DNA of 24,000 bases, from positions 18,786-42,785 of the forward strand of contig CAYNJF010000014.1 of assembly GCA_964397555.1 (NCBI GenBank), given 5' to 3'. The notes beneath the pieces were generated by a model. The model saw only the letters and a list, made by a program, of their open reading frames with translations, made no database searches and was not told the DNA's origin. Origin of the DNA: an uncultured Francisellaceae bacterium (GTDB lineage: Bacteria > Pseudomonadota > Gammaproteobacteria > Berkiellales > Berkiellaceae). Below, piece by piece: positions 21,665-21,901 of the stretch. Positions within the stretch are counted from its first letter, which is position 1, and each line of letters starts with the position of its first letter. Both the position numbers and the translations under genes were made by a program.

Positions 21665-21901
21665 ATGCGTGAATTAAGCATTTCTCAAGCGAATGAAGTT
21701 TCCGGTGCTGGCGTGATCTATGACTTTGCTCTGAAGCCAGGTGTTGAAGTCATCGGTATGGAGGCAGTCATCGTCGGTTACGACTACACAACCACCGAAG
21801 TAAGAGGTTTGTGGGAAACGACAATCTATGAAACCAAAACCCCTATCTTCGAATATTACCCTATTTACGCCGAAACTTTTGAAACCATTACTTACTATTA
21901 A
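21665..21901 (+). CDS. 78-aa peptide precursor with a double-glycine (microcin / class II bacteriocin-type) leader
   Basis: ATG 21665 has GAGG 6 nt upstream; the track start 21653 adds MRFF. The leader MRELSISQANEVSGAG matches the M-R-E-(L/I)-x..-(V/I)-S-G-(G/A)-G pattern of double-glycine leaders. The 62-aa core VIYDFALKPGVEVIGMEAVIVGYDYTTTEVRGLWETTIYETKTPIFEYYPIYAETFETITYY has about 9 Tyr, 10 Thr, 8 Glu and no Cys. Confidence 0.65.
   Translation: MRELSISQANEVSGAGVIYDFALKPGVEVIGMEAVIVGYDYTTTEVRGLWETTIYETKTPIFEYYPIYAETFETITYY

Follow-up and report, generated by a model that had tools for sequence, protein, structure and literature searches.

A probable secreted double-glycine-leader peptide of a new family, with a conserved upstream module, in uncultured Gammaproteobacteria

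The subject of this study is a 78-codon gene in a 24,000-nucleotide stretch of DNA from an uncultured Francisellaceae bacterium (contig CAYNJF010000014.1, positions 18,786 to 42,785; hereafter, the window). We think it probable that this gene encodes the precursor of a secreted peptide of a new family, exported by an unlinked system of the type built around a peptidase-containing ATP-binding cassette transporter (PCAT), and transcribed from a conserved, activator-dependent promoter. The ORF is a real protein-coding gene under purifying selection. By its diagnostic residues, the N terminus of the product is a leader of the double-glycine (GG) type, conserved position by position in the family, and a conserved upstream module accompanies the peptide gene in four unrelated contexts. 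The elements of the gene in the window are as follows.

21665 to 21901, plus strand: precursor gene, 78 codons and a stop, from the list of open reading frames (ORFs); identical to an NCBI-called protein (P0001), with at least 45 homologues and a ratio of nonsynonymous to synonymous substitution rates (dN/dS) of 0.10 to 0.42
21655 to 21658, plus strand: Shine-Dalgarno sequence GAGG, 6 nt before the ATG at 21665, read directly in the sequence
21665 to 21709, plus strand: 15-aa double-glycine-type leader MRELSISQANEVSGA, with predicted cleavage after Gly14-Ala15 (published regular expression, family position statistics, AlphaFold2 helix)
21710 to 21898, plus strand: 63-aa acidic, Tyr/Thr-rich core with family motifs and an aromatic C terminus (alignments, composition, predicted beta-hairpin)

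The ORF was confirmed in the window, and its 78-aa product is MRELSISQANEVSGAGVIYDFALKPGVEVIGMEAVIVGYDYTTTEVRGLWETTIYETKTPIFEYYPIYAETFETITYY. Another in-frame ATG lies upstream, at 21653, and lacks a Shine-Dalgarno sequence; because the peptide homologues all open with MR.L, and because the Shine-Dalgarno sequence fits the ATG at 21665, we assign the start to the latter. The dN/dS values come from comparisons between relatives of the peptide, the best-behaved pair giving a ratio of 0.10 at a dS of 1.03, which shows purifying selection on the gene. Were the ORF a product of chance in AT-rich spacer DNA, it would also be short and without a match to a database family, as this one is. That explanation is effectively refuted already, and we give it next to no weight: there are at least 45 homologues with conserved motifs, dN/dS is well below 1, a Shine-Dalgarno sequence and a conserved promoter are present, and the NCBI record calls the same protein. 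The AT-rich island in which the original prediction placed the gene is only mild, with a GC content of about 0.40 at the gene compared to 0.37 to 0.53 across the window, and the entire stretch from 17.5 to 24 kb is similar.

Consider next the leader. In the window peptide, the junction between leader and core reads MRELSISQANEVSGA followed by G. The regular expression published for class II microcin signals, M..Rx[IL]x9G[GAS] (PMC12219008), matches a single one of the 213 Met-started ORF variants of 40 to 150 aa in the window, and that one is the peptide ORF; shuffled windows gave a mean of 0.03 matches. Among the family members, 32 of 45 match the strict published expression, as the window peptide does. 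With these 45 sequences anchored on the first G-[G/A] within residues 12 to 22, position -2 was Gly in 100%, position -1 was Gly in 64% and Ala in 33% (97% together), and position -4 was V, I, or L in 100%. Further upstream, position -7 was hydrophobic in 82%, position -8 was Glu in 73%, position -12 was Leu in 87% (hydrophobic in 91%), and position -14 was Arg in 78%. Read across these positions, the family leader is the classical LSxxELxxIxGG pattern, shared with the signals of class II microcins and bacteriocins.

Five of the nine weak NCBIfam matches obtained over 28 members were to GG-leader families, namely bacteriocin_sig (TIGR01847), TIGR03949 (cerein 7B type), BlpC, VP1, and lactococcin G-alpha; all the matches to these models fell below the curated cutoffs. 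AlphaFold2 places a leader helix at residues 6 to 13, followed by a low-confidence linker, and it is the segment just after the GG site, where model confidence falls, that varies in length and sequence within the family. The original prediction of a double-glycine leader has thus held, with the diagnostic positions conserved across the 45 members. Its product of 62 aa needs a small correction, as the family register puts cleavage after Gly14-Ala15 and leaves 63 aa from GVIYDF.

The predicted mature product, with its 63 aa, would have an average mass of 7335 Da. Its composition on recount agrees with what had been described: it is acidic (net charge -7, pI 4.05), contains 9 Tyr, 10 Thr, and no Cys, and ends in TYY. 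Strong acidity is not in itself unusual among class II microcins. The family cores are similar, with net charges of -2 to -8, pI values of about 4.1 to 5.1, and 3 to 11 Tyr; they are Thr-rich, Gly-poor, and nearly always without Cys. Conserved within them are the motifs PGxE[VLI][IV]G[WFM], G[YW]D, and PI[YF]xxxPIY and an aromatic C terminus rich in T, V, and Y. AlphaFold2 was applied to two subfamily representatives, the window peptide and P0030, and each was modeled as a leader helix followed by one long beta-hairpin, with strands at residues 27 to 47 and 52 to 70 in the former and 27 to 47 and 53 to 71 in the latter. The mean predicted local distance difference test (pLDDT) score was 68.5 for the window peptide and 75.2 for P0030, in whose run the hairpin blocks reached 89 to 92. 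Because so long a two-stranded hairpin is unlikely to be stable as a monomer, oligomerization of the core is plausible from these models. Neither a Foldseek search against the PDB nor a PDB sequence profile yielded a meaningful match for the core. A core without a Pfam, NCBIfam, or PDB relative is in keeping with the new peptide family that had been suggested, and on this sequence comparison, we consider the family to be a previously unannotated one.

The family was assembled by several routes. Apart from the identical NCBI protein, a word-indexed search that used the peptide by itself brought up a single relative, of 52% identity, on a 602-bp ENA contig with two tandem paralogues. An exhaustive search with a profile built from these three sequences, run against 1.84 billion representatives, returned 24 small proteins of 71 to 87 aa, and a profile word search added further members, one of them bearing the JGI label "bacteriocin-like protein." Two giant profile matches, P0008 and P0022, were rejected as compositional; these are a fungal YTTT-repeat adhesin and a Big_12 protein. 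The resulting set of 45 distinct sequences, three of them read from loci, is a lower bound. All the family clusters are tiny (eight members or fewer), and the sources are metagenomes, Logan assemblies, and metagenome-assembled genomes (MAGs) only; the one named relative comes from a single uncultured Francisellaceae MAG. A metagenome scan with the alignment of closest relatives (A3) found nothing, and one with alignment A7 found three loci. No member was found in the plasmid and phage collections searched, and in the Legionella literature on double-glycine, microcin, or C39, we found no description of such peptides. Other peptide loci encode the Legionellales family PF28076 (CBU_0585_lpg0581). 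The family appears to be restricted to uncultured Legionellales-like or Francisellaceae-like Gammaproteobacteria. As to the organism of the window, an ankyrin-repeat protein (9727 to 11124) and a DOT1-like protein of the histone methyltransferase family (11607 to 12365) are encoded there along with many orphan genes; such eukaryote-like genes are typical of host-associated Legionella-like bacteria.

The related loci fall mostly into four contexts. In one syntenic clade (the window, L002, L016, and L017), the gene order includes an extracytoplasmic function (ECF) sigma factor, a DUF3379 anti-sigma factor, TerC, an S24-family gene divergent from the peptide, and a tetratricopeptide repeat (TPR) protein. 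In the CorA context (L003, L004, L005, and L011), an MFS transporter and CorA precede the peptide. In the A2M context (L006, L007, L008, and L013), A2M and PBP1c are followed by the peptide, a methyltransferase, and a peptide deformylase, and in the DsbC context (L009 and L010), the peptide follows DsbC and a second, hydrophobic GG-leader peptide lies directly downstream. The neighborhood of L018 differs from all four. The gene downstream of the peptide varies accordingly among CinA, a GGDEF protein, an alcohol dehydrogenase, a methyltransferase, a second peptide, or nothing. Local duplication was seen only once, in L001, a 602-bp metagenome contig with two tandem paralogues (68 to 298 and 352 to 582) that are 45% identical.

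What stays with the peptide gene across these contexts is an upstream module. Three elements of the upstream region can be placed in the window.

21435 to 21446, plus strand: conserved upstream motif CCGATGAACGGT, consensus [CG]CGAYNARNGG[TC], a putative activator site (12 loci, four contexts)
21485 to 21491, plus strand: putative -10-like element GTATGGT, 50 bp after the motif, proposed from the GTAT[GCT]AT of relatives
21492 to 21654, plus strand: extended 5′ untranslated stretch, exceeding that of relatives by about 100 bp (spacer comparison)

The motif was derived by aligning the four spacers of the S24 clade and then inspecting all upstream regions. It occurs 15 times in 196 kb, counting both strands, compared to 2.7 expected from shuffles, an enrichment that is optimistic because the pattern was derived from the same sequences; its fixed position across unrelated neighborhoods is the real evidence. 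Twelve of the 15 occurrences are on the coding strand and precede the peptide ATG by 108 to 147 bp (by 230 bp in the window); every context with an intergenic region is represented among these 12. In the relatives, GTAT[GCT]AT follows 56 to 67 bp after the motif and 63 to 81 bp before the ATG. This arrangement fits a -10 box with an activator site centered roughly at -65 to -75.

Other readings of the upstream region were tried and rejected. The CCGATAA-like motif does not work as a sigma-28 element, as there is no TAAA -35 element at the right spacing. A riboswitch or mobile element in the 5′ region found no Rfam match, no significant fold (z = -0.45), and no repeat copies elsewhere; Rfam had no match over the whole window either. 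The window-specific 5′ sequence does contain a perfect 10-bp inverted repeat, at 21490 to 21499 and 21525 to 21534 (GTTTTGTTTG and CAAACAAAAC), with a 25-nt loop.

The carrier genomes apparently encode several families of GG-leader peptides. Adjacent to the family genes, or a few kilobases away, are small ORFs of unrelated sequence that combine textbook GG leaders (for example, MRELQSAEILEVSGA and MRSLQYNEMKMIVGG) with hydrophobic cores:

L003, 19260 to 19523: unrelated GG-leader ORF
L005, 12787 to 13041: unrelated GG-leader ORF
L009, 7929 to 8156: unrelated GG-leader ORF
L010, 10231 to 10392: unrelated GG-leader ORF

The presence of these peptides near family genes suggests one exporter, encoded elsewhere, for a dispersed set of GG-leader substrates.

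Taken together, we imagine the following course of events. The leader would be recognized by an unlinked PCAT-type type I system and cleaved after Gly14-Ala15 during export, releasing the 63-aa anionic peptide that starts with GVIYDF. Transcription would start from an activator-dependent promoter, with the conserved site about 65 to 75 bp upstream of the presumed start and a TATNAT -10 element, and this promoter would answer to a trans-acting factor common to these genomes rather than to the adjacent S24 protein. Outside the cell, microcin-like antagonism or another cell-external function is most likely, with antagonism as the default guess. That guess is weakened by the lack of an immunity gene and by vertical, syntenic inheritance.

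Several observations weigh against this interpretation. The window leader is the weakest and least canonical of the family; it keeps V at -4 and L at -12, but it has Ala at -7 and Gln at -8. A profile search of the 78-aa sequence, which had been proposed as a check against double-glycine leader families, gave no match for the window peptide in Pfam or NCBIfam at an E value of 1 or less. Upstream, the window copy has an off-consensus spacing of 50 bp, the variant GTATGGT, and about 100 bp of extra 5′ sequence. With its weak leader, its spacing, and its extra 5′ sequence, the window copy may have lower activity than the related copies. The window encodes no ABC transporter, C39 peptidase, HlyD, or conserved small immunity-like gene in all of its 24 kb, and no PCAT, membrane fusion protein (MFP), or immunity gene was found in the available flanks (10 kb or less) of 17 related loci, several of them on short contigs. 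Nor does a conserved small membrane-protein gene lie downstream of the peptide in any context. The lack of a linked exporter, HlyD, or immunity gene, noted at first for 2 kb, thus extends to the whole window and to the family loci with flanks seen. Finally, a self-toxic bacteriocin would not typically be inherited vertically in chromosomal synteny and without an immunity gene, as the peptide gene is.

Some of these same observations could be explained if the peptide were an intracellular small protein, such as a coregulator, whose uncleaved N terminus merely resembles a GG leader. Such a protein would need no linked exporter at any locus seen, and a chromosomal, syntenic, vertically inherited gene would be expected of it. 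Its divergence would be unremarkable as well; between syntenic relatives, the peptide is 42 to 56% identical, compared to 34 to 40% for the anti-sigma factor and 61 to 78% for S24 and TerC, so that the peptide diverges at a rate like that of its faster-evolving neighbors. What makes this explanation quite improbable to us is the leader itself. Position-specific conservation, with an invariant Gly at -2 and V, I, or L at -4, is hard to explain otherwise, the linker directly after the GG site is variable, and genes for unrelated peptides that share this leader adjoin the family genes or lie close to them. Another proposal would have the GG leader guide both modification (for instance, of Tyr, Thr, or Pro) and export, making the peptide the precursor of a ribosomally synthesized and posttranslationally modified peptide (RiPP) with a modified mature product. 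GG leaders serve several RiPP classes; Tyr, Thr, and Pro positions are strongly conserved here (PIYxxxPIY and the C-terminal T/V/Y runs), and in one context (L006, L007, and L008), a methyltransferase gene lies directly downstream. Nonetheless, no modification enzyme is common to the four contexts, the core has no Cys, the leader, at 15 aa, is of the short kind used for transport and not the long kind used for recognition, and a core of about 60 aa predicted as a confident hairpin looks more like an unmodified small protein. We therefore consider a RiPP unlikely, and the RiPP-like nature originally raised finds no consistently adjacent modification enzyme to support it.

The remaining alternative concerns the neighbor of the peptide gene in the window. 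The original prediction described a divergent S24 gene across a 364-bp spacer, which we confirmed, and drew from it damage-inducible control of the peptide.

20659 to 21300, minus strand: UmuD-like S24 self-cleaving protein, 213 aa, with its ATG at 21300; exact match to an NCBI-called protein

Under this proposal, the peptide would be a toxin or bacteriocin whose promoter is repressed by the S24 protein until RecA activation leads the repressor to cleave itself, as LexA does for colicins and UmuDAb for the divergent ddrR of Acinetobacter. The protein certainly has the equipment for self-cleavage, with an intact Ala98-Gly99 site and a Ser/Lys dyad (Ser in TGESM and Lys in TVKRL). It also has an N-terminal extension of about 100 aa with the motif GGKRxGAGRPKGxGKYGE, homologous to the long UmuD of Legionella, Acinetobacter, and Synechococcus plasmids. 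The long umuD genes that we inspected on Legionella and Acinetobacter plasmids are in umuDC operons, whereas the S24 gene of the window is without an adjacent umuC. The divergent pair is kept in all four loci of its clade despite insertions on both sides. At the start of S24 in three of these loci, a palindrome, TGAA-N4-GTAC-N4-TTCA (L002, 9744 to 9763; L016, 1344 to 1363; L017, 4927 to 4946), resembles the architecture of the Acinetobacter UmuDAb operator, with its arms and GTnAC core (PMC11332147). DdrR, at 78 to 81 aa, is likewise divergent from umuDAb (PMC7273328).

In spite of these parallels, control of the peptide by S24 strikes us as doubtful, on a par with a RiPP. The protein scores 163.6 bits as UmuD (NF007621; cutoff, 110), with Peptidase_S24 at an E value of 2.8e-35, and falls below the cutoff of the LexA equivalog (103.8 versus 110.95); no LexA_DNA_bind or other DNA-binding Pfam domain was found in it. 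The palindrome sits at the promoter and 5′ untranslated region of S24 itself, about 125 bp from the conserved motif of the peptide. Its counterpart in the window (about 21345 to 21366, minus strand) is degenerate, with at least three mismatches and only the core and one arm kept. No Escherichia coli SOS box or Acinetobacter UmuDAb operator is present in the window's intergenic region (21301 to 21664). The family matches, in clusters of eight or fewer, include no abundant Acinetobacter-type protein, and the exhaustive and profile searches gave no sign of homology to DdrR. Then there is the distribution: a check had been proposed of whether homologues co-occur with S24 regulators, and they do so only in the one syntenic clade of four loci. 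None of the remaining 12 related loci shows S24 beside the peptide, neither those of the CorA, A2M/PBP1c, and DsbC contexts nor L018 (in L001, the sequence upstream ends after 67 bp). The upstream motif is kept in 9 of these 12; the four loci with an adjacent S24 all keep it, and so does the window. Damage-inducible control by S24, as first envisioned, is thus not borne out. For S24 itself, autoregulation in the relatives is plausible by analogy, and the palindrome points to a UmuDAb-like repressor that controls its own gene in bacteria other than Acinetobacter.

We return, then, to a secreted peptide with an unlinked exporter. One can envision a bolder version of it, a long shot at present, in which the family is a new class of type-I-secreted beta-hairpin peptides belonging to a dispersed GG-leader regulon with one activator binding CCGAYNARNGGT and a single distant PCAT. 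If so, the anionic hairpin of about 60 aa with its aromatic C terminus might form beta-sheet oligomers, either a pore or amyloid-like. Alternatively, it might mimic the C-terminal beta-signal of outer membrane proteins and attack the envelope biogenesis of competitors. A further possibility is that it acts on the eukaryotic host of these Legionella-like bacteria.

A few other features of the window deserve mention. Between TerC and S24 (16803 to 20572), it has three genes that L002 and L017 lack, whose products of 221, 620, and 275 aa belong to no Pfam family; between the peptide and the TPR gene (22083 to 23258), it has a gene of the GH5 cellulase family that L002 lacks. These extra genes flanking the S24-peptide pair look like lineage-specific insertions. 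The first 1,000 nt of the window have its highest GC content (0.53) and a GC skew of -0.21, and the only ORF there, of 121 aa, has no family match. One more element lies between the convergent peptide and GH5 genes.

21925 to 21958, no strand assigned: hairpin with 15-nt arms, a possible terminator that has no T-run and that the terminator scan did not call

Double-glycine-leader peptides are increasingly recognized as very widespread secreted effectors of Gram-negative bacteria, and those that have been validated are almost all enteric and adjoin their exporter. The family described here would extend this class to uncultured Legionellales-like or Francisellaceae-like bacteria that are probably host associated. 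Its core is unlike known bacteriocins, being an acidic, aromatic, Thr-rich, and Cys-free predicted beta-hairpin. Its layout is unusual as well, a solo gene, with no immunity gene, that takes a conserved promoter of its own along to different sites on the chromosome. If our interpretation is correct, the cis-regulatory motif provides a testable means of finding the regulator and the rest of the regulon, and the core provides a new peptide scaffold that could be screened for effects on bacteria or on a host. The family would also be an example of whole families missed by searches anchored on PCAT neighborhoods.

How does this family compare to known systems? Among its closest counterparts are the class II microcins of the Enterobacteriaceae (MccV, MccL, MccH47, and others; Parker et al. 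2025, PMC12219008), which share a Gram-negative producer, a 15-aa GG signal with Gly-Gly or Gly-Ala cleavage, the match to the regular expression, and a small mature product (about 60 aa) that is anionic and, as would be expected here, unmodified. The family cores differ in having no sequence relation to any known microcin and in being rich in Tyr, Thr, and Val with a predicted long beta-hairpin, rather than Gly/Ser-rich or membrane-helix-like. The genes differ too, in that they have no adjacent PCAT, MFP, or immunity gene and are chromosomal and syntenic rather than on plasmids or islands. Bacteroidetocins are another precedent outside the Enterobacteriaceae, also under 100 aa with a 15-aa GG signal; they are encoded next to the PCAT that they require (PMC12219008), whereas our family never adjoins one in the loci seen.

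The window also recalls the umuDAb-ddrR pair of Acinetobacter (PMC7273328, PMC11332147), in which an extended UmuD-like self-cleaving protein is divergent from a gene of about 80 codons and which the relatives match in an operator-like palindrome with a central GTAC and TGAA/TTCA arms. Here, by contrast, the peptide has an export leader, most of the genomes have no S24 neighbor, the family searches gave no sign of homology to DdrR, and the palindrome is at the S24 promoter only and degenerate in the window. The leaders of Gram-positive class II bacteriocins and pheromones (TIGR01847, TIGR03949, BlpC, and VP1) share the pattern L(-12)..E(-8)L(-7)..I(-4).GG, through which the weak matches arise; the matches stay below the cutoffs, the cores bear no relation to one another, and the hosts belong to another lineage. 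Finally, in cyanobacteria, several unrelated GG-leader precursors can be scattered in a genome, away from the ABC transporter that processes them; where the genome is complete, such sets can usually be linked to a recognizable PCAT or modification cluster in it. Our family, seen here through partial genomes, resembles these dispersed sets in having its precursors scattered away from a transporter.

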